This document shows positions 1-16,497 of a DNA stretch of 64,000 nt, piece after piece. Both the position numbers and the translations under genes were made by a program. Position 1 is the stretch's first letter; every line of letters begins with the position of its first letter. Below the pieces are notes generated by a model. The model had not been told where the DNA came from. It saw only the letters and a program-made list of their open reading frames with translations, and ran no database searches. This DNA comes from a virus (Duplodnaviria > Caudoviricetes): positions 10,564-74,563 of the IMG/VR virus record IMGVR_UViG_3300033121_001334; one strand, written 5' to 3'.

Positions 1-362
1 GACTTGCCAACAATTGATGGGTCAACACTTCCAAACACATGCAAAAGATGAAATCGCTTTCCTGAACGAGTCTTCCGCTTCGCTTTTTCAAGCTTGCGTC
101 CAGCTTCAAAGGCCATATCAATAGCCTTCTTAATGTTCCAGACGGCAATATCATGGAAGTCGAGTCTATCCATGTTGCGAGTCTCAAGCGTCTCAAGATT
201 AAGAAGCTTGCGAATCTCTTCGGAAACGTTGTTCTTCGCAATCAATTCGGGCAGTTCCTTCTTGCCCTGCTCTCGAACCTTGTTGCACTTCACAGCTTCT
301 TCGTCAGAGAGAGGGTGCTGTCGCACAATCCGCTCAAGGCGAGTTGTCTGAAAGTTGGTCAT
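1..362 (-). CDS. Hypothetical protein, DUF6900-like; runs off the left edge; absent from the ORF track
   Basis: ATG at 362 opens MTNFQTTRLE...LETLETRNMDRLDFHDIAVWNIKKAIDMAFEAG with no stop before position 1; preceded by the ACTAAACTT motif at 382-393. Confidence 0.6.
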   Translation of the reverse strand, partial: MTNFQTTRLERIVRQHPLSDEEAVKCNKVREQGKKELPELIAKNNVSEEIRKLLNLETLETRNMDRLDFHDIAVWNIKKAIDMAFEAGRKLEKAKRKTRSGKRFHLLHVFGSVDPSIVGK

Positions 363-427
363 AGCTTTTCGATTTGCGCGAAAAGTTTAGTTCAGAAATC
401 AAAAGAAGGAGTTTTGAAGGGCTTTTT

Positions 428-471
428 GTATTCCTGAAATAGCGGACTAACCGCTTAGATAACAGGAGTAC
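428..471 (+). promoter_or_regulatory. RBS-sequestering hairpin upstream of the HNH gene
   Basis: GTATTCCTG (428-436) pairs with CAGGAGTAC (463-471), which contains the AGGAG RBS; inner hairpin AGCGG/CCGCT. Confidence 0.6.
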
Positions 472-476
472 AGGTA

Positions 477-1235
477 ATGAATCAGTGTAGAAAATGCAAC
501 AATCAAATACCAGCAACCGTTAGAATAAACAATAAGAGACGAAATCTTTGCGGAAGAAAGTTTTGCCTTGAATGCAGTCCTTTTGGTTCTCACAATACAA
601 AACCAGATGATCCTGCAAGAAAATCTGTTTATGGACAGGAAAGATACAAGAAAAATCCTTATTCAAACTGGGCTGAGCATGCAAAAGAGTCTCATAGAAA
701 AAGTACCGTAAACCGAGCAGCAAAACTAAAGCAGAAAATTGTGAATCTGAAAGGCGGTAAATGCTCTTTATGCCAGAACTCAAGCATAGACGTTTTGACT
801 TTTCATCACAGAAATAGAGAAGACAAGTTATTCAATCTTGACAAAAGTTCATTGAGGTCTTACTCGTTAGAAGAAATAGCAAAAGAAATAGAAAAATGCG
901 ATCTTCTGTGTTTTAATTGCCACATGGAAACTGAAGCCAAACACGAAGCAGTAAAAGGCTCAGGAAAGCAGAATGTTAGAGGATGGGAAAGAAAGCAAAA
1001 AGCAATTGAAGAATTGGGAGGCAATTGTTCACAATGTAAATATGACAAATGCATAAGATCTCTGTCTTTCCATCACAGAGATCCATCTACAAAATCTTTC
1101 CCTTTAGATATTAGAGCCTTCAATGGTTATTCTTGGGAAAAACTACAAAACGAAATCAACAAGTGCGATCTGCTTTGTTTGAACTGTCATCGAAGCCTAG
1201 AGAACTCTCTAAGAAAAAGCAGGTATCTGCAATAA
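477..1235 (+). CDS. Free-standing HNH endonuclease with two tandem HNH/Zn modules
   Basis: Two copies of CxxC...FHH...C..LCxNCH; the stop abuts the 3' end of tRNA-Ile2. Confidence 0.85.
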   Translation: MNQCRKCNNQIPATVRINNKRRNLCGRKFCLECSPFGSHNTKPDDPARKSVYGQERYKKNPYSNWAEHAKESHRKSTVNRAAKLKQKIVNLKGGKCSLCQNSSIDVLTFHHRNREDKLFNLDKSSLRSYSLEEIAKEIEKCDLLCFNCHMETEAKHEAVKGSGKQNVRGWERKQKAIEELGGNCSQCKYDKCIRSLSFHHRDPSTKSFPLDIRAFNGYSWEKLQNEINKCDLLCLNCHRSLENSLRKSRYLQ

Positions 1236-1522
1236 TGGGCAAACCGGGATTCGAACCCAGAACCTAGCGATTATGCCTACTGACTTGAGTTTCCCCAAGA
1301 GTCGGACTGTACCTTCACCCGTTTCACTTCCTTACGGAAGAAAAGTTAGGGTGGCTGCCGTCCAGTCTCTACACCTTCGCTTTTCAGCGCTTGGCTCGGG
1401 ATTGGCGTGAGTCTTTCGACCTTTAGCTTTCCCCGACTTTGACAGCTTACTCATACAACATTCCTATTGTATGGACCCAAGTTTTCTTAAGTCGCTTGCT
1501 CTAACCGTTGAGCTATTTGCCC
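1236..1522 (-). tRNA. trnI: tRNA-Ile2 (CAU) interrupted by a group I intron after U33
   Basis: Exon 1 (1490-1522) GGGCAAATAGCTCAACGGTTAGAGCAAGCGACT joined to exon 2 (1236-1275) CATAATCGCTAGGTTCTGGGTTCGAATCCCGGTTTGCCCA gives a full cloverleaf; D and anticodon arms are Ile2-like rather than Met-like. Confidence 0.85.
1276..1489 (-). ncRNA. Group I intron (IC3-like), 214 nt, no ORF
   Basis: P1 GACU|UAAG-AAAA-CUUGGGUC with U.G at the splice site; AAAGUCGGGGAAAGC...GCCAAUCCCGAGCCAAG core; P7 GAGACUG/CAGUC; terminal G. Confidence 0.9.
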
Positions 1523-1554
1523 TATCTTCAATCGTCTACTATCAGTATATCCCC

Positions 1555-1620
1555 TGTTTTTGAACCTGGTATTGACCGCTAACCGACTCACCCAGTCTCT
1601 AACCGCTGAGCTAATCGCCC
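1555..1620 (-). pseudogene. Degenerate tRNA relic (Val-like 5' end)
   Basis: GGGCGATTAGCTCAGCGGTTAGAG is an intact acceptor and D-arm start; the anticodon and T arms do not fold. Confidence 0.5.
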
Positions 1621-1668
1621 GCCAACTCTTTCTCGACTAACGGAAGTTTAGTTCCGCCACATTCCACA

Positions 1669-2595
1669 TTACGCAGCCTTGCAAGAAAGCTTGCGATTTC
1701 GCTCCTTCATCAGTTCCTCAACCTTGCGAACCTCCTTCGAGGAGATTTGCCGCTTCTCAGCGGGCAAGTAAGCGCCGCCGAAGAGCGACTCGCAAACCGA
1801 CCAAAGACGCTCATAGTGGTAGTCGTGACGGTAGTAACGGTAAAGATCGTCCTTCTTGCCGTCAACGATTTGGCCGACGAACTTGTTGCTGCTCAGCGGA
1901 CGCCACTTCCACTCCCACTTCATGGTCTTGTCGTTGAAATCACGAACAGTCTCGCCGAACGACTTCTTCTTCTTCTCTTCAGCCGTCGCCTCGCGGAACT
2001 TGAACTCGTACCAAACCTCGCCGATCTTGTGGTACTGCGTCAGCGGCTTCTTCGGGTCGAAGTAGCTGTCGTTGCTCACGACCGTCTCTCGCCGATAGCG
2101 AGGATTCTTCTTGGTCTTGCGCAGTGTCCCGTCTCGGGGATCGACGTAAAACTCTTCGCGACCATAAGAAGTCGTCATGCTCTCGGGGCCAATGACCCCA
2201 GAAGCCATGACAGTGTTACCTTCCATGTAAGTCTTGGTCTGGACTTCGCCGAACTTAATCAAGTGCTGCCAAACATGAAACTGAATAGCGTTATTCAGGT
2301 TGAGGCCGCTCATGATCTCGCTGTACACCTTGTCCCAAGGCTGACCAATGCGAGAATTCAAGAAACGACGAAGAGGATTGAGGTTCTCGTTCAACCGCTT
2401 CTTGTCGTCGAAGGAGTTGGGCTTCGAGGTGTGAACCCTTTTCATTCCGCGAAAATCAGGAGTGTCCCAATCTTCTTCGAACGGAATGTCTTTGCAAGCC
2501 TGGCGAGTCAAATGACGGTTCTGGCGAATCCGCTCCTTACCGCAGCCGCCAGTTCGGGGGCGCTCAACCAAAACTTTTGCCATGTCTTTACGCAT
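1669..2595 (-). CDS. Hypothetical protein
   Basis: Long ORF with phage-like codon use; start likely at 2595 or 2583. Confidence 0.75.
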   Translation of the reverse strand: MRKDMAKVLVERPRTGGCGKERIRQNRHLTRQACKDIPFEEDWDTPDFRGMKRVHTSKPNSFDDKKRLNENLNPLRRFLNSRIGQPWDKVYSEIMSGLNLNNAIQFHVWQHLIKFGEVQTKTYMEGNTVMASGVIGPESMTTSYGREEFYVDPRDGTLRKTKKNPRYRRETVVSNDSYFDPKKPLTQYHKIGEVWYEFKFREATAEEKKKKSFGETVRDFNDKTMKWEWKWRPLSSNKFVGQIVDGKKDDLYRYYRHDYHYERLWSVCESLFGGAYLPAEKRQISSKEVRKVEELMKERNRKLSCKAA

Positions 2596-2788
2596 TGGTC
2601 CTCTTATTAGAAAATTGAGGCTGTTTGGAAAAGAAACCAAAACTTTTCTTGGTTTTGAATGTTAGATCAACAGAGCAATCGGGCTCGTTAAGATCATTAA
2701 TTACAAAACGCTTGACCTTGCTAACCATCTCCTCGGTTCCAGAGATTTTGATTCTCAAGGTTTTTTGTTTCTTAGTCGCTTCCAACAT
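2588..2788 (-). CDS. Small hypothetical protein
   Basis: ATG about 18 nt downstream of the ACTAAACTT motif at 2806. Confidence 0.55.
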   Translation of the reverse strand: MLEATKKQKTLRIKISGTEEMVSKVKRFVINDLNEPDCSVDLTFKTKKSFGFFSKQPQFSNKRTNA

Positions 2789-2821
2789 GCTTTTCTTTTT
2801 CCGCGAAAGTTTAGTTCCGAA

Positions 2822-2895
2822 TGGGCGACCTGGGACTCGAACCCAGAACCTCTTCTACGTCAAAGAAGCGCGCTGGCCAATTGCGCCAGTCGCCC
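2822..2895 (-). tRNA. trnV: tRNA-Val (GAC)
   Basis: GGGCGAC/GTCGCCC acceptor, CTTCT-TTGACGT-AGAAG anticodon arm, TTCGAGT T-loop; CCA not encoded. Confidence 0.92.
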
Positions 2896-3145
2896 GTTTT
2901 GTATTGTCCCAAGCCTTTCTACTATAAACAACGTTTGTCATGCTTGAAATATCTTCAACAAGAATGGCATGGTCCGTTCTGTCTTTGAATCTATTGCAAA
3001 TCACTTCAGTTATATCATTAACTGCCTTTACTGCCGCAGCATTAGTAAGGCTCAACCCTTTTATTTGTATCTCCAAAACTGGTTCTGGTCTCAATTCTCC
3101 TTGTTCAGGAGAATGATCCGTAATGGTTATTTTGCGGATAGTCAT
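2855..3145 (-). CDS. Hypothetical protein
   Basis: Start MTIRKIT at 3145 follows the motif at 3164; the 3' end overlaps tRNA-Val. Confidence 0.5.
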   Translation of the reverse strand: MTIRKITITDHSPEQGELRPEPVLEIQIKGLSLTNAAAVKAVNDITEVICNRFKDRTDHAILVEDISSMTNVVYSRKAWDNTKRATGAIGQRASLT

Positions 3146-3179
3146 GCTTTTCTTTTTCCGCGAAAAGTTTAGTTCTAAA

Positions 3180-3205
3180 TTGGAGCGACAGGAATCGAAC
3201 CTGTC
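3180..3205 (-). pseudogene. Orphan tRNA 3' fragment (T-arm plus acceptor 3' strand)
   Basis: ACAGG-TTCGATT-CCTGT-CGCTCCA-A directly after the stop of the upstream endonuclease gene; no matching 5' half found. Confidence 0.65.
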
Positions 3206-3755
3206 ATCCTCTGTTTTCTGAAACTGCTTTACAAAAAACAATCAATTCATCATCAGAGTATCTGTTTTTGGCAAGGTTAGCCATAACTGATACAAACTGA
3301 ACATTTCCTTTAACATATCCTAAAGAATTGTCTATTCTATCTAAACTTGCACCATTTATAGGTTGTTTACCAATCCAGCCGTTAGTGTTTTGAGGAAGAA
3401 CAAGATCCCAACCTGTATAAGGACATTTGCCTTTTTGCTTTTCCCATAAAAAACGAATATATTCTAGGTCTATATCAACTTCTTTATTTGTTCTGGTTTT
3501 AGATACACTTCTTGTTTTTAGGACTGTTGAAAACCATCGAAAAGGAGTTAATTCATCTCTTTGATTTCCAGATTCTTTTTTTATGTTTGGATTGCCCTTT
3601 CTTGGATTAGCCTTATTACCAATAAGGCAAGCACAAGATCTAGAGCAACAATGTTTATATCCTCTTTTTTGCGCAAGGTTGTATTGAGAAATTGTTTTAT
3701 GAAACCTTTTTCTACATTCTTGGTTTTCACATTCAACTTCAATCAAGGTCTTCAT
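3204..3755 (-). CDS. Free-standing HNH-type (His-Me finger) endonuclease
   Basis: N-terminal Cys motifs; CPYTG...SLDRIDNSLGYVKGNVQFVSVMANLAKN. Confidence 0.75.
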   Translation of the reverse strand: MKTLIEVECENQECRKRFHKTISQYNLAQKRGYKHCCSRSCACLIGNKANPRKGNPNIKKESGNQRDELTPFRWFSTVLKTRSVSKTRTNKEVDIDLEYIRFLWEKQKGKCPYTGWDLVLPQNTNGWIGKQPINGASLDRIDNSLGYVKGNVQFVSVMANLAKNRYSDDELIVFCKAVSENRG

Positions 3756-3830
3756 GTTTATTCCGGGTTTTTGTGATAAGAGTTTACTAAATAAATAGTC
3801 TTATCGGCTAAACCCGAAAAATTATTCAAT

Positions 3831-3900
3831 CGGCCCTCCCGCGCTTGAATCGGGTTCTAACGATTATCAGTCGTTTGCTCTACCACATGAGCTAAGAGCC
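3831..3900 (-). tRNA. trnI: tRNA-Ile (GAU) with a degenerate T-arm, possibly a pseudogene
   Basis: Good acceptor, D and AACGA-CTGATAA-TCGTT arms; the T-arm CCCGATTCAAGCGCGG is short and mispaired. Confidence 0.65.
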
Positions 3901-3915
3901 GCTTTCTAACAAAAG

Positions 3916-3990
3916 GGTGATCGACGGGACTCGAACCCGCAATCCTCTGGATCACAACCAGATGCTTAAACCAATTAAGCTACGACCACC
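3916..3990 (-). tRNA. trnH: tRNA-His (GUG) with encoded G-1
   Basis: GGTGGTCG...TCTGG-TTGTGAT-CCAGA...CGATCAC-C; C73 and G-1 identity elements present. Confidence 0.93.
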
Positions 3991-4112
3991 ATCAAGCTGC
4001 TAGAACTCCTTGATTTTACAAGTCAAAACTAGCGGGTACTCATTTTTGAGCAGGTTTAGTCGCTACGCTTCTAAACATGCCTTGCAGGTTTAGCTAACCT
4101 GAGTTTTCCAAA

Positions 4113-4141
4113 TAGGCACAGCCGGACTCGAACCGACAAGC
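4113..4141 (-). pseudogene. 3' half of a split tRNA-Val (UAC)
   Basis: GTCGG-TTCGAGT-CCGGC-TGTGCCT-A; TGTGCCT pairs with GGGCGCA of the 5' half at 4848-4854. Confidence 0.7.
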
Positions 4142-4312
4142 TTACTTCTTTTCAAGTTCCTCAATACGTTTTTCAAGAGATTCAACATACTTCATAAGAG
4201 GTTCAAATGCTCTTGAAAGTCGGTTTAATCTGTCTCTTAGATTGCCACCAGAAGGAATCGCATTATCTGTTCTGGTTAGACTATCAATTTCTTTTTTAAT
4301 ATCAGAATTCAT
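4142..4312 (-). CDS. Small coiled-coil hypothetical protein
   Basis: Start MNSDIKK at 4312 with upstream GGAGG; the longer track call overlaps a tRNA. Confidence 0.55.
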   Translation of the reverse strand: MNSDIKKEIDSLTRTDNAIPSGGNLRDRLNRLSRAFEPLMKYVESLEKRIEELEKK

Positions 4313-4323
4313 TTTTCCTCCAA

Positions 4324-4398
4324 TAGGCCCTCGGGGTGACGATCCCCGTACCTCTTCGGTGTAAACGAAGCGCTCTAGCCAGCGTGAGCTAAGGGCCT
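4324..4398 (-). tRNA. trnV: tRNA-Val (UAC) with non-canonical T-loop AUCGUCA
   Basis: AGGCCCT/AGGGCCT acceptor, CTTCG-TTTACAC-CGAAG, CGGGG-ATCGTCA-CCCCG. Confidence 0.85.
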
Positions 4399-4760
4399 GT
4401 ATGTCGCTCCTGGTAGTGGAGCTTAGCATGGCAATTCCTGCAAAGAACCATGCATTTTTCTATCTCTTTCATAATGCGTTCTAGGCTCATGCCTTTACGA
4501 ACCATTATGCTAACTTCAATTTCTTTTTCCTGCGGATCTCTGTGATGAAAGTCAAGACAAGCAATATGTGATTCTCGACAAACTTCACAAGGATGATTTT
4601 TCCTGTAATCGTTTAGAAACTCCCTGTTTCTTTCAATAATCTTTTTGCGCCAGATTTTTGCATCTTTTTTCTTTTGGGCTGCATTTTCTGGATTTTGATA
4701 CCACTTCTTATTGTATTCGCTATGGTAAGCGAGTTTCTTTTCTCTTTCTTTTTGAGGCAT
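4389..4760 (-). CDS. Free-standing HNH endonuclease
   Basis: CEVC...LDFHHRDP...CMVLCRNCHAKLH; start MPQKERE at 4760 behind an AGGAG RBS in the hairpin ATAACAGG/CCTGTTAT. Confidence 0.85.
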   Translation of the reverse strand: MPQKEREKKLAYHSEYNKKWYQNPENAAQKKKDAKIWRKKIIERNREFLNDYRKNHPCEVCRESHIACLDFHHRDPQEKEIEVSIMVRKGMSLERIMKEIEKCMVLCRNCHAKLHYQERHTGP

Positions 4761-4814
4761 AACAGGTTCTCCTGTTATACCTATTCGACTACTTCTTTTA
4801 CACTCCTTCAATTT

Positions 4815-4854
4815 CCGTGTAAAGGTGGCACTCTAGCCATTGAGTTATGCGCCC
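4815..4854 (-). pseudogene. 5' half of a split tRNA-Val (UAC)
   Basis: GGGCGCA-TA-ACTC-AATGGCTA-GAGT-G-CCACC-TTTACAC-GG, then breaks into the HNH upstream region. Confidence 0.75.
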
Positions 4855-4866
4855 AAACCCTGAAGT

Positions 4867-5196
4867 TTAGTTCTGACCTTCCGGCTGAACTTCTTCAGTT
4901 TTCATTTCTTTCTGCTTCTTGATCTCTTCAGATCTTTCCTTGAACCATCGGCCAATATGGCCCTGCATTGCGTAAATGTGACCCTCGTTCTCGCTAAGTT
5001 CGCTTTCCTTGATGAACCTGGTAAGCTCAAGAGCAAGAGCCTTATTCAGGGTAATAGTGATGTTACCCTTCATATGCTCAGGGTTTGCTGCGTCAAAAGG
5101 CTGAAGAATGAACACAGGCTTCTGAAGCGGACGACGATTTCTGACAGTTTTGGGGGAGTCGGACATGGATTTGCTCCAAGTGGTAAAAGTAAACAC
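4867..5196 (-). CDS. Hypothetical protein
   Basis: ORF between tRNA-Trp and the split tRNA-Val. Confidence 0.6.
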   Translation of the reverse strand: MFTFTTWSKSMSDSPKTVRNRRPLQKPVFILQPFDAANPEHMKGNITITLNKALALELTRFIKESELSENEGHIYAMQGHIGRWFKERSEEIKKQKEMKTEEVQPEGQN

Positions 5197-5240
5197 TCAA
5201 AAGATACATCGTACCTTTCTGCTTTCCACAATCAAGTCAA

Positions 5241-5312
5241 CGCGCCGTGGGAGGTTCGAACTCGCTTTTCCCGATTTGGAGGCGGGCGTCTTACCAATAG
5301 ACGAATCGGCGC
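5241..5312 (-). tRNA. trnW: tRNA-Trp (CCA) with several stem mismatches
   Basis: GCGCCGA...CCCGC-CTCCAAA-TCGGG...GCGAG-TTCGAAC-CTCCC-ACGGCGC; one mismatch each in the acceptor, anticodon and T stems. Confidence 0.7.
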
Positions 5313-5334
5313 AGTGTTACAAGCTATTCTGTTG

Positions 5335-5372
5335 TCAAAGAAAAAACCCCTCAAGTTTTTAGAAGGGATTTT
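5335..5372 (-). terminator. Weak intrinsic terminator-like hairpin; likely the distal half of the original attenuator terminator
   Basis: AATCCCTT-CTAAAAACTT-GAGGGGTT followed by TTTTCTTT. Confidence 0.5.
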
Positions 5373-5410
5373 TCCAAAAGCTTTGAAATAACTGATAAAG
5401 GAGTTCAGTT

Positions 5411-5869
5411 ATGTCAAAGTATCAGGAAATGACCCCAGAAGAAATCGAAGAATACAGAAGAAAACGTAGAGAATATTACCAGAATCTAACAAAAGAAGAA
5501 AAAGAAAGAAGAAGAATACAAAGAAGAGAAAGACGTAGAAAAAATGGAAAACCAGAAAAAGAATTAGAAGCTAATAGAAAATGGGCTGCCAAAAACAATA
5601 TCAAGATTCAAAAGCAAGCTCAAGATTTGAAACAAAAATGTGTAGAACTAAAAGGTGGAAAGTGTTTTGCTTGCAATAATTCTTTCCCGTCTTGTGTTTT
5701 TGATTTTCACCATAGAGATGTTAATCAAAAAGAAGAACAATTATCGGTTTTGATCTACAAAGCTCACGGAGAAATGACTCAAGAACTATTATCTGAACTT
5801 CATAAATGTGATCTCCTTTGCTCAAACTGTCATAGAATACATCACCATGTGAAACAAAAAACCCCTTGA
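5411..5869 (+). CDS. Free-standing HNH endonuclease, antisense to the tRNA cluster
   Basis: CFAC...FDFHHRD...CDLLCSNCHRIHH; RBS in the loop of the hairpin ATAACTGA/TCAGTTAT. Confidence 0.85.
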   Translation: MSKYQEMTPEEIEEYRRKRREYYQNLTKEEKERRRIQRRERRRKNGKPEKELEANRKWAAKNNIKIQKQAQDLKQKCVELKGGKCFACNNSFPSCVFDFHHRDVNQKEEQLSVLIYKAHGEMTQELLSELHKCDLLCSNCHRIHHHVKQKTP

Positions 5870-5884
5870 ATAAACTCAAGGGGT
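5852..5884 (-). terminator. Intrinsic terminator of the Ile/Val/His/Trp attenuator
   Basis: ACCCCTTGA-GTTTAT-TCAAGGGGT followed by TTTTGTTT. Confidence 0.8.
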
Positions 5885-5914
5885 TCCGCAGACCTGTGGA
5901 CATACAGCAAGTAG

Positions 5915-5980
5915 TCAACAGTCGCTACCCCTTGAGGTAATGACATGCCAAATCACCTGATGTACAACTATGCTGTTCAT
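5915..5980 (-). CDS. Attenuator leader peptide MNSIVVHQVIWHVITSRGSDC (21 aa); absent from the ORF track
   Basis: GGAG RBS 9 nt before ATG; codons 4-14 are ATA GTT GTA CAT CAG GTG ATT TGG CAT GTC ATT; codons 15-18 contain CTCAAGGGGT, complementary to the terminator 5' strand. Confidence 0.8.
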   Translation of the reverse strand: MNSIVVHQVIWHVITSRGSDC

Positions 5981-6013
5981 TTCAAAAATCTCCGCCCAAC
6001 ATTGGGCTACCCA

Positions 6014-6042
6014 ACTGTATCGGCTTTTTCCGCAAAAGTCAA
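6014..6042 (-). promoter_or_regulatory. Sigma70-like promoter for the Ile/Val/His/Trp leader
   Basis: TTGACT-N17-TACAGT. Confidence 0.7.
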
Positions 6043-6180
6043 CAATCTTTTCACGCTTTCTCTAGTTTCCTAAAATCCTTCATTTTCCGCTTACGGAAAC
6101 TAGGCCATTTTGGGAAACTGCTAAATGCGATTAAGACCCCGATTCTCACCCATAACGATTATGCTTCACAAATTCCTTCT

Positions 6181-6579
6181 TTATTGCGAAACTTTTCCGT
6201 AAATTTCTGCGCTTTCAATCGTGCCTGTTGGAATAGTAATCAAAGATCTAAAACTGGGCTCTTTGTTTCCAGCTTCAAACATTGAGTCAACTCCAATAGT
6301 AACAAATTCTTTTTTTTCGCCTATAAAAGCAACAAAACCGGAAGTGCAAACCTTGCTTGGCCCGTCAGGAACTTCGCCAGGCTTGAGTACAGAATCCGGA
6401 TCGAATACTGCGCCCTTCCAAATAACCTGAACTATATTCCCAATTTCAGCCTTGGCAAAAAACTCTTCAGAGTTCATAAACTTCTCCTTTACTATCATGT
6501 CTATCGACAAGAGAGTATTACAAGGAGAAAATCCAGAATCCTCTTCAGTTCTGACTATTGAATTTACGAATCGCGCCAA
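6181..6579 (-). CDS. Hypothetical protein
   Basis: ORF in tandem with its neighbours. Confidence 0.6.
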   Translation of the reverse strand: MARFVNSIVRTEEDSGFSPCNTLLSIDMIVKEKFMNSEEFFAKAEIGNIVQVIWKGAVFDPDSVLKPGEVPDGPSKVCTSGFVAFIGEKKEFVTIGVDSMFEAGNKEPSFRSLITIPTGTIESAEIYGKVSQ

Positions 6580-6961
6580 TCAGTGTAGCGACTTCGATTT
6601 TCCAAAGCTCAGGAAACCTGACATTCTCTGGCATCCAAACATCAAAATGAACGTCCAGAATAGACTTGATATTTGCTCTACCAGCAGGATTCAAGCTATG
6701 AACAACAACAATCTTACCATGATGCTGCGTCATGTCTTTCAAGTGACGAGCAACAAAACGACCGTCCTCATGATCGTCTTTGGTAACATGATAATGCTCT
6801 TCTTCGAGATCGTGATCCAAATAGATCACATCATACTCGTTCTTTTTCAACAAGTCGATTGCTTCTTGCGCAGTGATAGCAAAGTCAACAACGCAGCCAA
6901 TAGCTTTCTGTTGAAAGACATCTCGCCTGCTCTTCATGTCGTCAAGGAACAAGATCCTCAT
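6545..6961 (-). CDS. Receiver-fold protein resembling the cyclic-phosphate-processing REC family
   Basis: MRILFLDD...AQEAIDLL...YDVIYLDHDL...VVHSLNPAG pattern. Confidence 0.6.
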   Translation of the reverse strand: MRILFLDDMKSRRDVFQQKAIGCVVDFAITAQEAIDLLKKNEYDVIYLDHDLEEEHYHVTKDDHEDGRFVARHLKDMTQHHGKIVVVHSLNPAGRANIKSILDVHFDVWMPENVRFPELWKIEVATLIGAIRKFNSQN

Positions 6962-7102
6962 TGAATGCGGCAGGCGGGCGATAAACCCGCTTGCCCCTTT
7001 AGATTGCGTTTTCAAAATGCAACCAGCGCCTACCAAACGTACAGGGCCTGCCGCACTTCATTATCGACCAACGCCGCCCTGCCTCTCTGCTGTTCAGAAA
7101 GT

Positions 7103-8296
7103 TTAGTTCTCCTCGTCGCCGCCCTCGTCGTCGTCGTTGCGGCGACCTTCGCTGGTCAGCGACCAGCCGCCATTGTCGTCTCGGTCAGCCAGGCCTTGAG
7201 CCTTGTAGTTCGACAGGTTCTTGCTCAGCTTCTCGCGAGTAAGCTCAGGGAATTCGACAAGAAGCCTGTCGTAGATACCGCCAAGGTCCAGCCGAGAATG
7301 AGTTGTGAGAATGTCTTTGACGCTGGGAAACAGTCTCAGCCTCTTGCCTCTTTGGGGCTTGGTCTGCTTTGCGGTCTTGATAGAGGGATGTCCTCCAAGC
7401 TCGGCAACTCGTTGGTCGAGGGCTGCGAACTTCTGAAAAGCAAGTTCAACGGCGATTTGCGCTGCCTTGGCCGCTTTCTTTGCAAGACCATACTCGGCAA
7501 CGGCCTTCATCCGCTCTTCTTCAGCGAGCTTGAGAGAGGCGCTGTCTTTGCCCAAAAGAACGTCAAGGTCGATGAGGTCGTCGTCGTCAAGGTCGATTGG
7601 AAACGAAGGCTGCGGCTTCGCAACCGCAAGAATGGAAGCGGGAATGGCCGGCGCAGTGGGGCGAGAAGGTTGAGCGACGGTTGGAGGTGTCGGCGGAGGT
7701 GTCTGCGGCTTGAATGGCAAGGCTTCGGGGGTAGAAGGAGCCGTCAGAACCTCAAGGAGAGCGTCATGGGCTTCCCCAATAGGCAAGAGCTTGGCGTCGT
7801 CTTGCATGGGAACCTTGTTGATTTTCCCAATCGCTCTCATGCCGTCGCCGTGGTCCCTCCACTTGTTGGCGAGATTGAAGTTCTGCGTCCAACGCCTTTC
7901 TTGCCCGGCCCAAACGGCTTTCATCTTCGCGCTGAAGATGACAAACTCGCCAGAGGGAGCGCCAGTCGGGACAATGCTCGTTGGGATAGACAGTCTCTCT
8001 CCGAGCGGCTTCCGAAAATCAACAGCAGACGGCATATTCATTACCTCCGTGATGTCAAAGTCGCAACCGCTCTTCCAAAGATAGATATTGGAGAGCTTTT
8101 CTTCTTCGTCATGTCCGTGCTTGAAGGGCCGAACGATGGCCCTTCCATTGCCCAAGACCTTCTTGAGAATGCCCCTATTGGGCTTCCCCCTTATGTCTTT
8201 GTTGATGAGCTTGATATTGCAGATTCGCCCGCTCTGTTGAGCAAGCTCAAGGAGCTTGAGGGCTTGAGCTTCTGAAATTCCTTGACGGCTTTCCAT
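7103..8296 (-). CDS. Hypothetical multidomain protein with a Pro-rich linker and possible C-terminal winged helix
   Basis: 397-aa ORF; ATG about 20 nt after the motif at 8316. Confidence 0.75.
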   Translation of the reverse strand: MESRQGISEAQALKLLELAQQSGRICNIKLINKDIRGKPNRGILKKVLGNGRAIVRPFKHGHDEEEKLSNIYLWKSGCDFDITEVMNMPSAVDFRKPLGERLSIPTSIVPTGAPSGEFVIFSAKMKAVWAGQERRWTQNFNLANKWRDHGDGMRAIGKINKVPMQDDAKLLPIGEAHDALLEVLTAPSTPEALPFKPQTPPPTPPTVAQPSRPTAPAIPASILAVAKPQPSFPIDLDDDDLIDLDVLLGKDSASLKLAEEERMKAVAEYGLAKKAAKAAQIAVELAFQKFAALDQRVAELGGHPSIKTAKQTKPQRGKRLRLFPSVKDILTTHSRLDLGGIYDRLLVEFPELTREKLSKNLSNYKAQGLADRDDNGGWSLTSEGRRNDDDEGGDEEN

Positions 8297-8349
8297 AGTC
8301 TAGAAGTCTAGGCCGAAAGTTTAGTCTTGGGCTTTCTCCGAGTGCAAAA

Positions 8350-8402
8350 TGGCCCCGATGGGATTCGAACCCCTACGCCTTTTTACGGGCTACGGATTTT
8401 TC
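8350..8402 (-). pseudogene. Orphan 3' half of a class II tRNA-Leu
   Basis: AAAA-TCCGTA-GCCCGTAAAAAGGCGT-AGGGG-TTCGAAT-CCCAT-CGGGGCC-A, overlapped by the HNH stop codon. Confidence 0.7.
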
Positions 8403-8827
8403 ACATTTCTTCCTCTCCAAGTTGGAGTCAATGCGTGGCAGTTGCAACACAAAAGTTCTAGATTTTCTTTTCGGTTATCAGTTCTATCACCATTTTTGTG
8501 TTCAATTTCTAAAGGAGCGATCTCTCCTTGCCATTCTGTTATTTTACACTTTTCACATTGATGACCTCGTTCCGAAATCAAATGTGGTTTTAAAGAAGAA
8601 AGCTTATTGTATTCTGACCAGTCTTTTAATCTTTTCCCAACGTTCCAAGCACTACCAGTCCAATGAGAACAATCCAGATTTAGCCTCTGGAGTGTTTTTC
8701 TCATATTGTTGTAGTTGCCACCTGCAACTCTGAGATCAAGGGCCTTCAAAAGCTCTGCCATCGAGTTGACTTCTTTACACTTTTGAATAATTTGTTCATC
8801 GGTGTAGCTTCTGTATTTTCTTGCCAT
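8390..8827 (-). CDS. Free-standing HNH endonuclease
   Basis: CEKC...LEIEHKNGDRTDNRKENLELLCCNCHA; start MARKYRS at 8827 behind GGAGG in the hairpin TAATCCATCT/AGGTGGATTA. Confidence 0.9.
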   Translation of the reverse strand: MARKYRSYTDEQIIQKCKEVNSMAELLKALDLRVAGGNYNNMRKTLQRLNLDCSHWTGSAWNVGKRLKDWSEYNKLSSLKPHLISERGHQCEKCKITEWQGEIAPLEIEHKNGDRTDNRKENLELLCCNCHALTPTWRGRNVKNP

Positions 8828-8893
8828 AATCCACCTCCATAGATGGATTACAATTGGCAATCGAATTATCCTTCTTCGTCTACCAATTCCTAA

Positions 8894-9212
8894 TGGACTG
8901 ACCGGGACTTGAACCCGGATGGTGTTTGAATACCTGCGGATTTTCTTACCACTTCAGCTTTCGCCGACTGCCCTTTTCCATCAAGGTACTTGGGGTCTTA
9001 CGTTTGTGGTCTGGACTGTACCTTCATCCGTTCTGCTTCTTACGAAGAGTTTTGGATGACCCAATTGCAGTCTCTACGGCTTCCTTTGTAGGTTTGCCTC
9101 GGAATTGGGATTTTACACCGTTTCCCGATACTCTGGGTTTCATTTACAAGATTACTCTTGTAACGCTCAAATTGTCTAAGTCCGCTGCGTCTGCCAATTT
9201 CGCCATCAGTCC
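8894..9212 (-). tRNA. trnL: tRNA-Leu (UAA), class II, interrupted by a group I intron after U34
   Basis: Exon 1 (9178-9212) GGACTGATGGCGAAATTGGCAGACGCAGCGGACTT plus exon 2 (8894-8944) AAAATCCGCAGG...GGTTCAAGTCCCGGTCAGTCCA. Confidence 0.9.
8945..9177 (-). ncRNA. Group I intron, 233 nt, no ORF
   Basis: P1 CUU|AGA-CAA-UUUGAG with U.G at the splice site; GUAGAGACUG and GAAGGUACAGUCC form P7; terminal G; same position as the cyanobacterial/plastid trnL(UAA) intron. Confidence 0.9.
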
Positions 9213-9219
9213 AATTATT

Positions 9220-9420
9220 CTATTCTTTGCGCGAATAATTTTGCACAGACAATTTATCTATTTGTTCTTGTTGAGATTTAATAATACTTAAGATTTTCAA
9301 AAAATCTCCAGCCATAACAAAAAAAGTATTATCTCCCTTAATAGGAAATTTTCCTCCTTTACCAGCTTTATCCATTCTTTCTTTAACGTTTTGAATAAGT
9401 TCCTCAATCTCGTTCTTCAT
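9220..9420 (-). CDS. Small hypothetical protein
   Basis: AAGGA RBS; lies between tRNAs. Confidence 0.6.
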   Translation of the reverse strand: MKNEIEELIQNVKERMDKAGKGGKFPIKGDNTFFVMAGDFLKILSIIKSQQEQIDKLSVQNYSRKE

Positions 9421-9430
9421 ATTTGTCCTT

Positions 9431-9826
9431 TCAAAAAGTCCGATGCGTCTGCCGTTCCGCCACAGGGCCGATAATCTGAGAAACAGTCATTTTGCGAACA
9501 GGTAAAATGTTGTGGTCCAAGAAGTGATTGAGGCAATCTTCCACTTCGTCCAAGAAGCTATCGCAGGCGGCAATTCTGTTAGAGGGAAGATCTTCTCTCA
9601 TTTCAAGAATCGTTCTGTAAATCGAAATCAAGTCAATAACTTTGCATTCGATTTTAGATTCTCGCGCAAAAGTAAAAGCGTCCGAAATGAGATCCAAATC
9701 GGGCTTTCTTGCGGATTTCAATGATTGAAATGCAGAAAGAGCTTTTTCTTTGCGAAGCTCGTTCTGGTTTGGAGAGTGAATATCTACTTTAATAGAACGA
9801 AAATCAAGAGTATCAAGCATCGTCAT
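9431..9826 (-). CDS. Hypothetical protein
   Basis: 131-aa ORF starting just after a tRNA 3' end. Confidence 0.6.
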   Translation of the reverse strand: MTMLDTLDFRSIKVDIHSPNQNELRKEKALSAFQSLKSARKPDLDLISDAFTFARESKIECKVIDLISIYRTILEMREDLPSNRIAACDSFLDEVEDCLNHFLDHNILPVRKMTVSQIIGPVAERQTHRTF

Positions 9827-9828
9827 AA

Positions 9829-9902
9829 TAGCTCCAGAGAGATTCGAACTCTCAACCTTACCGCCTTAAACGGTTTGCCTCTGCCGATTGAGCTATGGAG
9901 CC
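9829..9902 (-). tRNA. trnL: tRNA with Leu anticodon UAA and a short variable loop
   Basis: GGCTCCA/TGGAGCT acceptor, ACCG-TTTAAGG-CGGT, GAGAG-TTCGAAT-CTCTC, A73. Confidence 0.75.
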
Positions 9903-9918
9903 AAAGTTTAGTTCTAAA

Positions 9919-9992
9919 TGCTCTTGAGTGGATTCGAACCACTAACAACTAGATTCTGAGTCTAGCGCCTCTGCCGGTTGGGCTACAAGAGC
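9919..9992 (-). tRNA. trnL: tRNA with Leu anticodon CAG and a short variable loop
   Basis: GCTCTTG/CAAGAGC, CTAGA-CTCAGAA-TCTAG, 5-nt variable loop, A73. Confidence 0.88.
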
Positions 9993-10005
9993 GAATTTTA
10001 CTAAA

Positions 10006-10079
10006 TGCCCAGGACTGGATTCGAACCAGCACTGTATTGATTTTGAGTCAATCGCCTCCTGCCGTTGGGCTACCTGGGC
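10006..10079 (-). tRNA. trnL: tRNA with Leu anticodon CAA and a short variable loop
   Basis: GCCCAGG/CCTGGGC, ATTGA-CTCAAAA-TCAAT, 5-nt variable loop, A73. Confidence 0.88.
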
Positions 10080-10100
10080 TTTATTGAAGTATTTCCATAA

Positions 10101-10183
10101 TGCCCCTGAGAGGATTCGAACCTCCACGTCCTTTCGGACACGAGATCCTAAGTCTCGTGCATCTGCCGTTTCGCCACAGGGGC
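10101..10183 (-). tRNA. trnL: tRNA-Leu (UAG), class II
   Basis: GCCCCTG/CAGGGGC, CGAGA-CTTAGGA-TCTCG, GTCC-GAAA-GGAC variable arm. Confidence 0.93.
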
Positions 10184-10192
10184 CTATTTTAT

Positions 10193-10405
10193 TTAGGCCA
10201 TTTTACACGGACTTGTAAAATTCCAGACAGCTTTGATGTCTTCTTCAATCGGAAACTCATGCGATCTATTTCCGTCAACAATAACCTCTTTTACTGATTC
10301 AGTAACGCAAATTGCAGAAACTAATTTTTGAAGCTCGCTCAGAACATCGACCTGAAAATTGTAAGTGTCCTCAGTGGTTATAACAACGATTCTTTTTGTA
10401 CTCAT
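10193..10405 (-). CDS. Small hypothetical protein
   Basis: Start MSTKRIV at 10405 with AAGGA RBS; the longer track call overlaps a tRNA. Confidence 0.55.
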   Translation of the reverse strand: MSTKRIVVITTEDTYNFQVDVLSELQKLVSAICVTESVKEVIVDGNRSHEFPIEEDIKAVWNFTSPCKMA

Positions 10406-10424
10406 TATGATCCTTTCTTTTAAA

Positions 10425-10508
10425 TGGCCTTGACAGGACTCGAACCTGCACTCTCTTGCGAGAACCACCACCTCAAGGTGGCGCGTCTGCCAATTCCGCC
10501 ACAAGGCC
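10425..10508 (-). tRNA. trnL: tRNA-Leu (GAG), class II; first gene of the Leu cluster
   Basis: GGCCTTG/CAAGGCC, CCACC-TTGAGGT-GGTGG, long variable arm. Confidence 0.94.
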
Positions 10509-10517
10509 TTATGTACC

Positions 10518-10551
10518 AAAAGAAAAACCCCATCTTTTTAGGGATGGGGTT
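10518..10551 (-). terminator. Intrinsic terminator of the Leu attenuator
   Basis: AACCCCATC-CCTAAAAA-GATGGGGTT followed by TTTCTTTT, about 10 nt before tRNA-Leu(GAG). Confidence 0.85.
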
Positions 10552-10582
10552 CGTGTGCATCTACGCAACGACTTCCATCCCT

Positions 10583-10633
10583 TTATTCAAGGAGTAGGAG
10601 GCCGCATAACAAGCTGTTGAAGTTAGTATTCAT
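10583..10633 (-). CDS. Attenuator leader peptide MNTNFNSLLCGLLLLE (16 aa); absent from the ORF track
   Basis: Leu codons TTG TTA ... CTC CTA CTC CTT; the stop is immediately followed by AGGGATGG, complementary to CCATCCCT in the terminator. Confidence 0.85.
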   Translation of the reverse strand: MNTNFNSLLCGLLLLE

Positions 10634-10639
10634 GGTTGA

Positions 10640-10667
10640 ACTATATACCTTTTCGGCTAGAAGTCAA
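10640..10667 (-). promoter_or_regulatory. Sigma70-like promoter, probably giving a leaderless transcript
   Basis: TTGACT-N16-TATAGT; the leader ATG is 7 nt downstream of the -10 box. Confidence 0.7.
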
Positions 10668-10952
10668 AAAATCCTTCAACGAACACGAAAGAATTTTGTG
10701 AGTTTTCACCGATTGAGCTTTTTTGGTTTCCGGAAAATTACAAGGAATCTCAATCCCGCAATAAGGACAAAATATCTGTCCAAGCGTTTTTTCTCCGCAA
10801 ACAAGACAATCACTTGATCTTGTAATAGCGGATCGCTTCTTCCAAATCCAACGCCTCAAGCTCGCCCAGAGAAATAAAAACACAACCCCGCTGCTTATAG
10901 ATAAGAGGATTATGCCAGTGTCCATGTACGAGTATCCTAGGCATATGAGCAT
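10641..10952 (-). CDS. Small membrane protein with a Zn-ribbon
   Basis: Hydrophobic N-terminus; CLVC...CPYC; partly overlaps the upstream phosphoesterase ORF. Confidence 0.45.
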   Translation of the reverse strand: MLICLGYSYMDTGIILLSISSGVVFLFLWASLRRWIWKKRSAITRSSDCLVCGEKTLGQIFCPYCGIEIPCNFPETKKAQSVKTHKILSCSLKDFLTSSRKGI

Positions 10953-11469
10953 GAATCATCGAATCAAGCAAGAAAGCTGTGGAGTTACCCTTTGGTTCGC
11001 CCCAGCCCTCATTGTTGCGGTCATAAGTACAAGAAGCAGCCTTGGCAATCTGATGAAGCCTAAACGGAGCTTCATGACAAATCAGAATATCAGGCTTGTT
11101 GTTGATGTAGTCATCAAGAGCAAGCTCCATAGCCTCCCGATTAAGTTGCTCGTCAGGCCACCAATCAACTCCCTCTTTTCTCCACTTCTTATCAACAGAA
11201 TCAGCGCCAGCAACAATGTACAGCCCATTCCACATGCCATACTCAACGGCATACTGCGGATGCGCTCTGCAAATGGCTGGATTGTCATGATTTCCGCGAA
11301 AGAAACGAAAGTTCGCAGGCAGCTTTGGTTCTCGACCAGGAAAGCCAATACCAACGTCGCCAAGACCAAGAACAGTCTTGTTCGCGTACTTATCGCAGAC
11401 GTTCTTGAGCATGGACCATTTCCCATGAACGTCGCCAACAATCACAATATCATTCAGGCTTGGATTCAT
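10810..11469 (-). CDS. Calcineurin-like metallophosphoesterase
   Basis: GDVHG, GDVG, GNHD and HGHWH motifs. Confidence 0.9.
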   Translation of the reverse strand: MNPSLNDIVIVGDVHGKWSMLKNVCDKYANKTVLGLGDVGIGFPGREPKLPANFRFFRGNHDNPAICRAHPQYAVEYGMWNGLYIVAGADSVDKKWRKEGVDWWPDEQLNREAMELALDDYINNKPDILICHEAPFRLHQIAKAASCTYDRNNEGWGEPKGNSTAFLLDSMIHAHMPRILVHGHWHNPLIYKQRGCVFISLGELEALDLEEAIRYYKIK

Positions 11470-12979
11470 CTCTCAAAACTTTCTGGAACTGATACAGCGC
11501 CGCTCCTTCTAAACACTGCTTTGCAAGACCAAACAAAACGCTCAATCTGTCAAGCGTTAGTCCGGCTCTCTTTGCAATACCGCCCAGAAGAAGCTCTCGC
11601 TGTTTTTCGTCCAAAAGCTGAGAGGTGGTGTCAATCGCCACCAAAATGCGCAAGAATCCAACAAGCTCGTCTTCTTCCAACGGAGGGTCAATCTCTTCGT
11701 CATTGCCCAAAAAATCGGTCAGCTTCACAAGCTCGCAATCCTGATAAGGGTTTGCGATGTAGTTAGCGACCTCTTCCGTGAAAGAAGTATCAACGCCAAT
11801 GAAGCCGCCGTCCACCTTATGAATATCAAGATGAATAACCTGACCCGGATTATCAGGGTCAGCTACCTCGATAGTCTTGATGTACTGGCTAATCTTCATG
11901 ATTCGTCTTCTGTTCCGCCGTCGCCAAAGATTCGCTCTCGAACCCTGTCATGGATAGCATAGTCAACCTCAAAGAAGGCGTCAACTTGCCGTCCCATTTC
12001 AAGAGCTTTTTCGATTTCATTTGCGCCGCTATTGGAAAGCACAATCTTCTTGCCGGTAATCCTTTCAAGGGAAGCGATAACCCGCTTCATACCTTCGACA
12101 GGATCAACATTGGCAATCGTCCTGAACGACGGAGCCAGGTCCGCAAATGATGTTGCGTAAACTTGATTGAACGCAAGGTTTTCTCGGTATTCCGTCAGCG
12201 CCCAAGAGTTCGGCGTTGCGGAAACACCATAACGATAGCTCAAGGTCTCGCCCTTGCTGCGAGGCCCTTCAGACTTGCGAGTTTTCCAGTCGTCCGAAAG
12301 GTGACAAAGCACCTTTTCGTTCTCGGCTTGCTTCGGTAAATCAACTTTCATATGCTACATATAGTAGCAGAAAGTTTAGTCTTGGCAAACCAAACTGTGG
12401 TTTCTCAAAGAACTAGACACACTCCAACGACGAGAGTTTCTCGTTCATGTCTACCTGAACGCCTCTGTCTTCAAGAAACTGAACAAGGTCGTATAACTCT
12501 TTGTACGAGTCATGACCTAAAGATTCATTCATAAATAAAAGACCAGACCAAACAGCTTTGCCGCTACGAGGAACCTTGATCTCTTTTCCGTCGAGACAGA
12601 TAGTTGACGGATAAGTTGTGAAGCCAAAGTACACAAAAGCGCCGTTGCTAAGTTCAACCGCAAATACAGCAATACTTTGCGGATTCACAATCACAATCTT
12701 GTCATTGTGAAGCATAATCCCTTGAGACAAAAGCTTTGCGTCAAGCAAGGGATCTTCTGAACCCTCAACCAGGCACTCTTCTCCATAAAAGCGATGAATG
12801 GGGCCTACCCTAATCGCCTTATCCTGTGCTTGTTGTCGCAGGGCAACAAGATGAGCATACATCTCCTTCTTGTCGCAAACAAGCTCAAAATGAAGAGCGC
12901 CAGAATCAGTCTGATGATTCTTGAGTCGCTCGGTTTCCATAAACAATTCCCCTGAACGAACTGGACTGATTGTTGTCAT
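11450..12979 (-). other. Three hypothetical CDS (11450-11899, 11896-12351, 12413-12979)
   Basis: Tandem ORFs with overlapping start/stop codons; no family recognised. Confidence 0.7.
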
Positions 12980-13125
12980 GTTTCTTTGTTGTTGAGAATT
13001 CCCGTGCCCTCAAAGATAGTATGAACTCCCCGCATGAAAATGCAACATTTTACAAGTGAAAACGGCACAATCTAAAAGAAATACATAAAGGCTTCTTGTT
13101 ATACGACCCTGCTAGACCTTTGGAT

Positions 13126-13719
13126 TCAGAAATTCGCCAAATAAGCGGCAATTTCTGTGAAATCCGCAAGGTTGGCGCGATCCCAGGGAGTCTTCCCTGC
13201 ATTGTCCTTCACATGAACGCTTGCACCTTCTTCTTCAACAAGCCGCTTGACTTCATCAAAGTCTTGAGCGTCAACAGCCAGATGCAGGCGGGTCTTCCCA
13301 AACTGACCAACCTTCTGGTCAATGCTTCGAAAAACCGGCTTCTCCTTAAGCCTAGTCTGGAAAACCAAACTAGAAGGCTCTTCAATAACCGGCTCTGGTT
13401 GACTGTTGAAGAACTCAATGATCTCGTCAAAAACTTGAGAAGTTATGTTTTGCAAATCAATAATAGCATTGACCTGCGCCAATCGAGTCAACGCTCCAGG
13501 TTGAAGCTTGCCCTTCTCGGCCCAGGCAGGATGCTGATTCAGGATTTCTCTTTTTGCACGAGAGAAAATAAACTCTCGCAATCTAAAGCGGTCAATTGTC
13601 GAACCGTTATTCGAAGAAAGCCTCCTGGTTAGTTCTTCAATAAGAGGTTCCAGAAGGCTTTCTTCTTTTGGGCTGATTAATGGCATAAACAATCCTTTTT
13701 TCATCAGCAAATGAGCCAA
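13126..13719 (-). CDS. Protein with a C-terminal ankyrin repeat
   Basis: GKTRLHLAV...VKRLVEEEGASVHVKDNAGKTPWDRA; upstream TTGCTT-N17-TACGAT. Confidence 0.75.
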   Translation of the reverse strand: MAHLLMKKGLFMPLISPKEESLLEPLIEELTRRLSSNNGSTIDRFRLREFIFSRAKREILNQHPAWAEKGKLQPGALTRLAQVNAIIDLQNITSQVFDEIIEFFNSQPEPVIEEPSSLVFQTRLKEKPVFRSIDQKVGQFGKTRLHLAVDAQDFDEVKRLVEEEGASVHVKDNAGKTPWDRANLADFTEIAAYLANF

Positions 13720-13877
13720 GTCCGTCTAGCTCACTATCAGGAAATTTGTCGGTTCCGTTTGCCGCCCTCTCCGAGACAGCAAGAATATCGTACATGAAAT
13801 CGCCTTGAAAAGCAAGAAACGAAAGAACTTGCAATGATTTTTTGCAATCGGGGTTAGTTGTGGAAAAGTTGTCACTT

Positions 13878-16143: not shown

Positions 16144-16497
16144 TTGTATTTCTCCTACTTATGGCTTCCGTTGACTTCCAAGAACCGACTACTACTTTTC
16201 GTCGCCCTCAGTTGTCTATTCTTCAAAAACCCCAAGAAAGTTTAGTTCGGAGCTTTCTATTCGCCCTTGCCAACCTTCCCTTACGCCCTTTACGTTTTTC
16301 CCAAGAAAGTTTAGTCCTGGGCGGCGTTCCCCTTCTTACTCTAACTCGTACCTTTATACGAGTCAACCTTGTAAACCCCAATTTTCGCGGAAAAGTTTAG
16401 TCCTCCCCAAACTTTCTCTTTAAGGTTTGTAAACAGTTAGGGATACAAAGCCTTTATTACCCATTTCAAAGCCCGCCAAAAGTTTAGTTCTGGCTTT

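Follow-up and report, generated by a model that had tools for sequence, protein, structure and literature searches.

The locus considered here raises the question of why a short open reading frame (ORF) with a dense run of Ile, Val, His and Trp codons should stand ahead of phage genes for Trp, Val, His and Ile transfer RNAs (tRNAs). It lies in a 64,000-nucleotide stretch (positions 10,564-74,563 of the IMG/VR record IMGVR_UViG_3300033121_001334; hereafter the window) of a giant wastewater phage that is represented by a single 74,563-bp viral contig of 44.7% G+C. All of the evidence is computational; window coordinates are used throughout and the element is read on the minus strand. The arrangement is likely to be a ribosome-mediated (leader-peptide) transcription attenuator that gates the phage Trp/Val/His/Ile tRNA operon, in which case the phage would probably produce these tRNAs only under slow reading of Ile, Val, His and Trp codons. 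An initial annotation of the window had proposed such a switch, and the proposal gains support from the presence of all of its parts, from their conservation in two relatives with compensatory changes and from folds that agree with it.

A sigma70-type promoter (TTGACT-N17-TACAGT) is present at 6014-6042, with the -35 element at 6042-6037, a spacer of 17 nt and the -10 element at 6019-6014. The contig of 74.5 kb contains just three sequences of the form TTGACT-N16-18-TANAGT; all are on the minus strand, and two of them precede the two leaders described here. The untranslated 5' region (5'UTR; 5981-6007) contains a small hairpin at the 5' end of the predicted transcript (6007-5994) and a GGAG sequence (5993-5990) located 9 nt ahead of the ATG at 5980. 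The leader ORF (5915-5980) comprises 21 codons and a stop (TGA at 5917-5915) and would encode the peptide MNSIVVHQVIWHVITSRGSDC. Re-reading of the sequence places the promoter, the GGAG and the ORF exactly where they had been annotated, and reading of the ORF confirms the composition claimed for its regulatory codons 4-14 (5971-5939; ATA GTT GTA CAT CAG GTG ATT TGG CAT GTC ATT, translated IVVHQVIWHVI): ten of the 11 specify Ile, Val, His or Trp and each of the four Val codons is used once. In a scan of all 96,020 stop-free 11-codon stretches in the six frames of the contig, a content of ten is reached by the leader alone; the stretches with nine all overlap the leader and the best found elsewhere contains eight. 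The binomial probability of the run is 1.3 × 10−7 at the proteome frequency of these residues (0.164). Since GTT is strongly favoured (0.61) and GTG is rare (0.06) in the codon usage of the phage, the occurrence of four Val codons that are all different has a P-value of 0.021.

The leader RNA can adopt three mutually exclusive hairpins. The protector (segments 1:2; 5901-5966) pairs 5966-5935 with 5930-5901; its 5' strand is the regulatory codon run itself and its tip holds the antiterminator strand CTCAAGGGGT. The antiterminator (segments 2:3; 5875-5936) pairs 5936-5927 with 5884-5875 through ten Watson-Crick pairs (-27 kcal/mol, z -3.5). The perfect 10-nt complementarity that had been noted between codons 15-18 and the 5' arm of the terminator is exact, with CTCAAGGGGT (5936-5927) on one side and ACCCCTTGAG (5884-5875) on the other. 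The intrinsic terminator with its T-run (segments 3:4; 5852-5887) consists of a hairpin of 13 pairs at 5887-5858 followed by T6-G-T3 (-17.5 kcal/mol, z -4.15). The minimum free-energy (MFE) structure of the whole leader combines the long protector with the terminator (-54 kcal/mol, z -3.2). The annotated terminator is thus present as a hairpin with a T-run, but its 3' arm and T-run (5870-5852) belong to an inserted HNH endonuclease cassette, which is described below.

The effect of a ribosome on these structures was modelled by masking a 29-nt footprint at each codon and folding the transcript as far as the point where the terminator 5' arm ends. The complete antiterminator of 10 bp is available while the A site is at any of codons 1-11, whereas seven of its ten pairs are left with the A site at codon 12, four at codon 13 and none once it has reached codon 14 or any later codon up to the stop. 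Sensing would therefore be effective at about codons 4-11, and the reservation attached to the initial annotation, that stalls at codons 13-14 could still mask the antiterminator, is well founded. The same outcome is obtained for the window, for a cassette-free allele and for a relative (L001), as well as for a second, Leu-coding unit in its own register. The modelled folds agree with the classical logic of attenuation, in which a stall leads to read-through and completed translation leads to termination.

From this anatomy we infer promoter use, translation of the leader, stalling and the extent of the operon as follows. Host RNA polymerase would start at the sigma70-type promoter and a ribosome would translate the 21-codon leader. 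With fast decoding of Ile, Val, His and Trp codons, the ribosome would be found at codons 14-21 or at the stop, covering CTCAAGGGGT; the terminator would then form and transcription would end before tRNA-Trp. With slow decoding of codons 4-11, caused by a scarcity of charged cognate tRNA, the stalled ribosome would open the protector and leave CTCAAGGGGT free to pair with the emerging 5' arm of the terminator, so that no terminator would form and the polymerase would continue into the genes for the Trp, Val, His and Ile tRNAs. The newly made tRNAs would relieve the stall, which amounts to a negative feedback on tRNA supply. In the window, the HNH cassette has split the terminator loop, contributing a stronger replacement 3' arm and leaving a second, weak hairpin before tRNA-Trp.

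The genes that would be controlled in this way were called with ARAGORN and Rfam and all lie on the minus strand. The first is tRNA-Trp(CCA) (5240-5313), followed by tRNA-Val(UAC) (4398-4324), tRNA-His (3989-3915), tRNA-Ile(GAU) (3901-3830), tRNA-Val(GAC) (2895-2822) and a tRNA(CAU), which may be Ile2 or Met, with a group I intron in its anticodon loop (1522-1236; 61 bits in Rfam). The initial annotation had given these as the only downstream tRNAs; this holds within the window, but further downstream on the same strand, in genome bases 1-10563, there are also Met(CAU), one tRNA with an odd anticodon loop and Lys(UUU). An apparent 5' part of another tRNA is seen at about 1625-1560 on the minus strand, ahead of the intron-split tRNA(CAU).

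Two relatives allow the leader to be compared between phages: an IMG/VR contig (L001, also represented as L003), whose flanks are about 85% identical to the window, and a metagenome contig (L013), whose protein-coding flanks are 73-76% identical. Both contain the same tRNA set in the same order as the window. The promoter is kept, with 28 of 29 bases unchanged in L001 and as TTGACT-N17-TAGAGT in L013. The 5'UTRs (5981-6013 in the window, 7236-7279 in L001 and 5810-5851 in L013) are unalignable among the three and have been replaced by unrelated sequence, although a small hairpin and an A-rich run ahead of the ATG are found in every version. From 2-3 nt before the ATG onwards the relatives are conserved again. 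Codons 1-18 specify an identical peptide in the three phages, with synonymous changes only (GTT>GTC and TCA>TCC); codons 19 and 20 vary, and the position of the stop is fixed at codon 22, which is TGA, TAA and TGA, respectively. The identity of the leader (for L013, 96% with L001 and 90% with the window) is like that of the tRNA genes and unlike that of the neighbouring proteins. At a background identity of 85%, the probability of finding at least 53 of 54 identical bases is 0.0016.

The pairing is conserved together with the codons. Protector and terminator fold in all three leaders (z -3.2, -6.0 and -3.7). Across these leaders 98.8% of the cells of the protector are paired, compared with 32-48% when the partners are slid; pairing in the protector is maintained through five one-sided changes, and two-sided changes are absent from it. 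In the terminator three pairs have changed on both sides among the three phages and all cells are paired (33/33, 100%). The 5' arm of the L013 terminator is ACCCCTGGGA instead of ACCCCTTGAG, the difference being one T-to-G change. This change in segment 3 is matched by an A-to-C change in segment 2 (A-U to C-G, from the synonymous TCA>TCC) and also by an A-to-C change in the terminator 3' arm (segment 4). A single base with two alternative partners, both of which have changed with it, is what an attenuator would predict. The covariation rests on three distinct sequences (the window, L001 and L013) and is supportive, although not statistically decisive.

In the window a 513-nt HNH endonuclease cassette (5361-5873, plus strand) lies between the attenuator and tRNA-Trp. 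Its ORF (5411-5869, 152 amino acids) matches the HNH endonuclease family phrog_2255 of PHROGs (E-value 9.7 × 10−19) and the motif CX2C..HH..N..CX2CH is seen in it; Pfam did not recognise this ORF as HNH, whereas PHROGs did. A wastewater contig of 2,655 nt from one sequencing run (X7) has zero differences to the window at 5200-5360 and 5874-6500 and contains one base in place of 5361-5873, and thus represents a cassette-free (empty-site) allele. The cassette is also absent from L001 and L013. The HNH ORF and the insertion polymorphism with its precise boundaries fit an HNH homing-endonuclease cassette with putative nuclease and homing functions.

The terminator of the empty-site allele consists of AACCCCTTGAG, a 7-nt loop, CTTGAGGGGTT and a T-run, with tRNA-Trp starting 27 nt later; the corresponding distance from the end of the T-run is about 9 nt in L001 and 35 nt in L013. 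Comparison with relatives lacking the HNH gene, as had been suggested with the initial annotation, thus finds a terminator adjoining tRNA-Trp in all three cassette-free sequences, and it follows that the cassette sits in the terminator loop. The ancestral layout is a terminator 9-35 nt before tRNA-Trp. The last six codons of the cassette (KQKTP and stop), read on the opposite strand, supply the new 3' arm and T-run of the terminator. This arm pairs better than the ancestral one (ten Watson-Crick pairs and one G-U pair versus nine and two G-U pairs). The ancestral 3' arm and T-run (5355-5341) together with a cassette-supplied arm now form a second weak hairpin (5335-5372, minus strand; -14.7 kcal/mol), with a 6-bp core that includes a G-U pair and with a 9-nt loop. 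Its arm CTTGAGGGGT and T-run are identical to the 3' arm found in L001 and in the empty-site allele. Both of the complications that had been listed, an antisense HNH gene and a weak hairpin before tRNA-Trp, are present and have one cause in the 513-nt insertion. The switch itself is intact in the window, but it may be coupled to the tRNAs more leakily or more tightly than in the cassette-free relatives.

A further complication that had been anticipated, internal ACTAAACTT motifs within the cluster, likewise proves to be a real, strand-specific signal of the phage. The motif (a)G(A/G)ACTAAACTT(t) occurs in 40 copies on the minus strand of the whole contig compared with two on the plus strand. 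It often stands exactly 19-21 nt ahead of an ATG, and it also directly precedes or follows tRNA genes; positions on the minus strand of the window include 9912, 8325, 7107, 4871, 3173, 2815, 1652 and 391. In L013 its place is taken by GGCTAGACTTT, in seven copies. Because the signal is both lineage-specific and strand-specific, it is probably a phage-specific promoter or an RNA processing site. No copy is present between the attenuator and tRNA-Trp in the window. In L013 no copy of the phage-type motif is present between the attenuator and the last Val tRNA, an absence that fits a single Trp-Val-His-Ile unit. Upstream of the Met and Lys tRNA genes in genome bases 1-10563 no unit of leader and terminator was seen, and ACTAAACTT motifs stand there instead. 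At 16246-16488 of the window (minus strand), four of the motifs are spaced about 70-90 nt apart around the third sigma70-like promoter (16366-16338); this region resembles a dense regulatory region and is not followed by a tRNA.

A second unit of the same kind (10518-10667, minus strand) precedes the Leu tRNA genes of the window. It consists of a promoter (TTGACT-N16-TATAGT), an ORF of 16 codons (MNTNFNSLLCGLLLLE) with six Leu codons of five kinds, an antiterminator strand and a terminator. The ATG is located 7 nt after the -10 element, such that the mRNA is apparently leaderless. The strand GGGATGG is complementary to the terminator 5' arm, and the terminator lies 17 nt before tRNA-Leu(GAG), the first of five Leu tRNA genes (10508-9828). 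In the predicted fold the Leu codons are paired with the antiterminator strand and the terminator follows. The unit is kept in the relative (L003, 1000-1150). It shares its layout, the terminator core (GAACCCC ... GGGGTT and a T-run) and the MN(S/T) start of the peptide with the Ile/Val/His/Trp unit, and differs in sensing a single amino acid, in being apparently leaderless and in having its antiterminator strand just after the stop codon and not inside the ORF. We infer that the two units may be diverged copies of one module.

Several observations weigh against the proposed attenuator. The conserved CAG (Gln) codon in the regulatory run has no matching tRNA in the cluster. As a ribosome-binding site, GGAG at a distance of 9 nt from the ATG is modest, and the relatives do not keep it. 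Use of the sigma70-type promoter by the host is an assumption. Four metatranscriptome runs from one wastewater study contain the whole of 5300-6100, but only as contigs that may stem from carried-over DNA. If no ribosome is present, the MFE structure of the nascent RNA already favours the antiterminator, by 9.3 kcal/mol in the window and by only 1.3 kcal/mol in L001; termination would therefore rely on the order or kinetics of folding and on masking of segment 2 by the ribosome. The covariation comes from three sequences only and the shuffle controls are weak (165/500 and 36/500). In L013 a hairpin of nine pairs with a T-rich tail (6169-6193) lies just after its two Trp tRNAs, and a promoter-like sequence (TTGACA-N17-TATTTT, 5987-6015) lies between the terminator and tRNA-Trp, although its start would fall inside the tRNA. 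Finally, ACTAAACTT motifs are present inside the cluster at 4871, 3173, 2815 and 1652. If these are promoters, only tRNA-Trp would be strictly dependent on the attenuator here and the later tRNAs may be expressed independently.

Three other explanations were considered. The hairpins could be a conserved untranslated RNA element, for instance one that constitutively terminates or insulates the upstream genes, or one that serves processing or stability of the tRNA precursor, with the ORF as a by-product of constraints on structure. Codons 6-18 lie inside the protector, so that their conservation at the nucleotide level could be structural, and translation of an ORF whose ribosome-binding site is not conserved is only predicted. 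Structure, however, leaves unexplained why the richest Ile/Val/His/Trp stretch of the contig matches the tRNAs downstream and why a second unit spells Leu before Leu tRNAs. Codons 1-5 are outside the hairpin and yet are conserved, while the UTR 3 nt upstream has been replaced, and the stop codon has changed in identity and not in position, with synonymous changes in the ORF. A purely structural element is thus an improbable reading of the locus. It is still harder to credit that the ORF is a gene for a small hydrophobic peptide that has its own function, for example in a membrane, that the terminator merely ends this tiny gene and that the likeness to the tRNAs is coincidental. Both leaders are indeed hydrophobic, both begin with MN(S/T) and the peptide is kept in three phages. 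Hydrophobicity does not predict His and Trp codons, however, nor would a free-standing peptide predict that Leu and Ile/Val divide cleanly between the two units in agreement with their downstream tRNAs, that all four Val codons are used (P-value 0.021) or that an antiterminator strand inside the ORF covaries with the terminator.

The remaining alternative accepts the attenuator and proposes that in this phage it became a relic on insertion of the HNH cassette, with the tRNAs now expressed mainly from the phage-type ACTAAACTT signals. Read-through in the window would have to cross the antisense HNH gene (460 nt) and the second hairpin, which has a T-run (-14.7 kcal/mol). Three other alleles lack the cassette that is found here, and the motif occurs inside the cluster. 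Decay of this sort is nevertheless unlikely, since the cassette brings a well fitting 3' arm (ten Watson-Crick pairs and one G-U pair) and a T-run, which leave the switch intact, and since no ACTAAACTT motif separates the attenuator from tRNA-Trp. Moreover, the leader is identical in the cassette-free contig, indicating that the insertion is recent and that no decay is visible. A functional leader-peptide attenuator therefore appears to account best for the locus.

Leader-peptide attenuation is a textbook mechanism for operons of amino-acid biosynthesis and of aminoacyl-tRNA synthetases. The enterobacterial examples include ilvL of ilvGMEDA (Ile/Val/Leu), thrL (Thr/Ile), trpL, hisL and leuL. 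As in leaders of the ilvL and thrL type, the phage unit has a short ORF close to the promoter, in which codons for several amino acids are clustered in a run, and exclusive protector, antiterminator and terminator hairpins, among which the position of the ribosome would decide. Those leaders regulate biosynthetic enzymes, whereas the phage unit would regulate tRNA genes, so that its output would act directly on the sensed step. In contrast to the long single-codon runs of enterobacterial leaders, the phage leader uses many kinds of single codons, including all four Val codons. Homology in sequence or structure to those leaders is absent: the Rfam leader families (Leu_leader, His_leader, Trp_leader and Thr_leader) gave no match in a cmscan search of window 1-14000 at E-values up to 1, which returned only tRNAs, the group I intron and two weak plastid-UTR matches on tRNAs. 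The pheM leader attenuates the pheST operon for an aminoacyl-tRNA synthetase and, like the phage unit, places a leader-peptide attenuator over a part of the translation machinery that serves the sensed amino acid. It differs in controlling protein-coding genes, in sensing one amino acid and in belonging to a cellular genome. The possibility that the Escherichia coli tRNA-Phe genes pheU and pheV have a Phe leader was rejected, as both loci have a plain promoter directly before the tRNA.

T-box riboswitches also sense tRNA status through a terminator/antiterminator switch upstream of cognate genes. They bind uncharged tRNA directly and without translation, whereas the phage unit would sense it through the speed of the ribosome, and the T-box model had no match in window 1-14000 in the cmscan search. 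Free-standing homing endonuclease genes are known in phage tRNA clusters, T4 SegB being an example. The HNH cassette resembles these in its presence or absence between near-identical phages inside a tRNA region, and is unlike them in being inserted in a regulatory terminator loop and in encoding the replacement arm with its own last codons. Literature searches gave no description of leader-peptide control of tRNA genes. The phage locus appears to combine a known mechanism with a new target, tRNA genes, such that decoding speed would feed back directly on tRNA supply.

Sensing of tRNA supply through a leader is plausible because a hisL-based reporter responds to tRNA gene dosage: overexpression or deletion of tRNAs alters its output (PMC8129111). 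Some host defences are now known to act by depletion or cleavage of tRNAs, and they can be neutralised by tRNAs of phages (PMC11464382, PMC11555353, PMC13056530). It is conceivable, although doubtful, that large phages carry a general and undescribed class of tRNA-supply sensors, in which codon-matched attenuators switch on blocks of tRNA genes upon stalling, possibly as an inducible counter-defence. If true, such sensors would detect the loss of tRNAs through translation and answer it with replacement tRNAs, alongside the tRNA ligase RtcB and TilS. A connection between the attenuator and tRNA-cutting defences as the selective reason is speculation, and would link the locus to current interest in tRNA-targeting defences. 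Attenuation of this kind would explain how large phages with many tRNA genes time the expression of these genes, and would give a hint, readable from sequence, of the codons that limit a phage in its host. With the comparison of three phages, the Leu unit and the naturally occurring cassette-free allele to hand, short synthetic reporters would be enough for a direct test of the hypothesis.

Searches for further relatives extended the comparison little. No match to window 5200-6300 was obtained with blastn in a phage collection, and all tblastn matches of a topoisomerase subunit were at most 48% identical, indicating that there is no cultured relative. A neighbouring 98-residue protein has six further homologues; a metagenome scan with this protein found nothing. 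Further scans of viral contigs returned only the same IMG/VR contig (L001/L003) and a scan of genome contigs returned nothing. Three sequencing runs (X6, X9 and X10) yielded short pieces only, which are identical to the window.

The stretch is found in sequencing runs from wastewater and sludge. The CheckV completeness estimate for the contig is 15%, which implies a phage of the order of 500 kb. The minus strand of the contig carries almost all genes and all tRNA genes; topoisomerase II subunits and a helicase are among the proteins encoded. The presence of TilS, for which the initial annotation had seen a need, is supported by a match to PF01171 (145 bits, domain match 61187-61738) in a TilS-like gene at 60752-61873. 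An RtcB tRNA ligase is encoded at 36687-37994 and a cREC receiver-domain protein at 6545-7036, all three genes being on the minus strand. As a group they provide for the modification and repair of tRNAs, beside the tRNA clusters.

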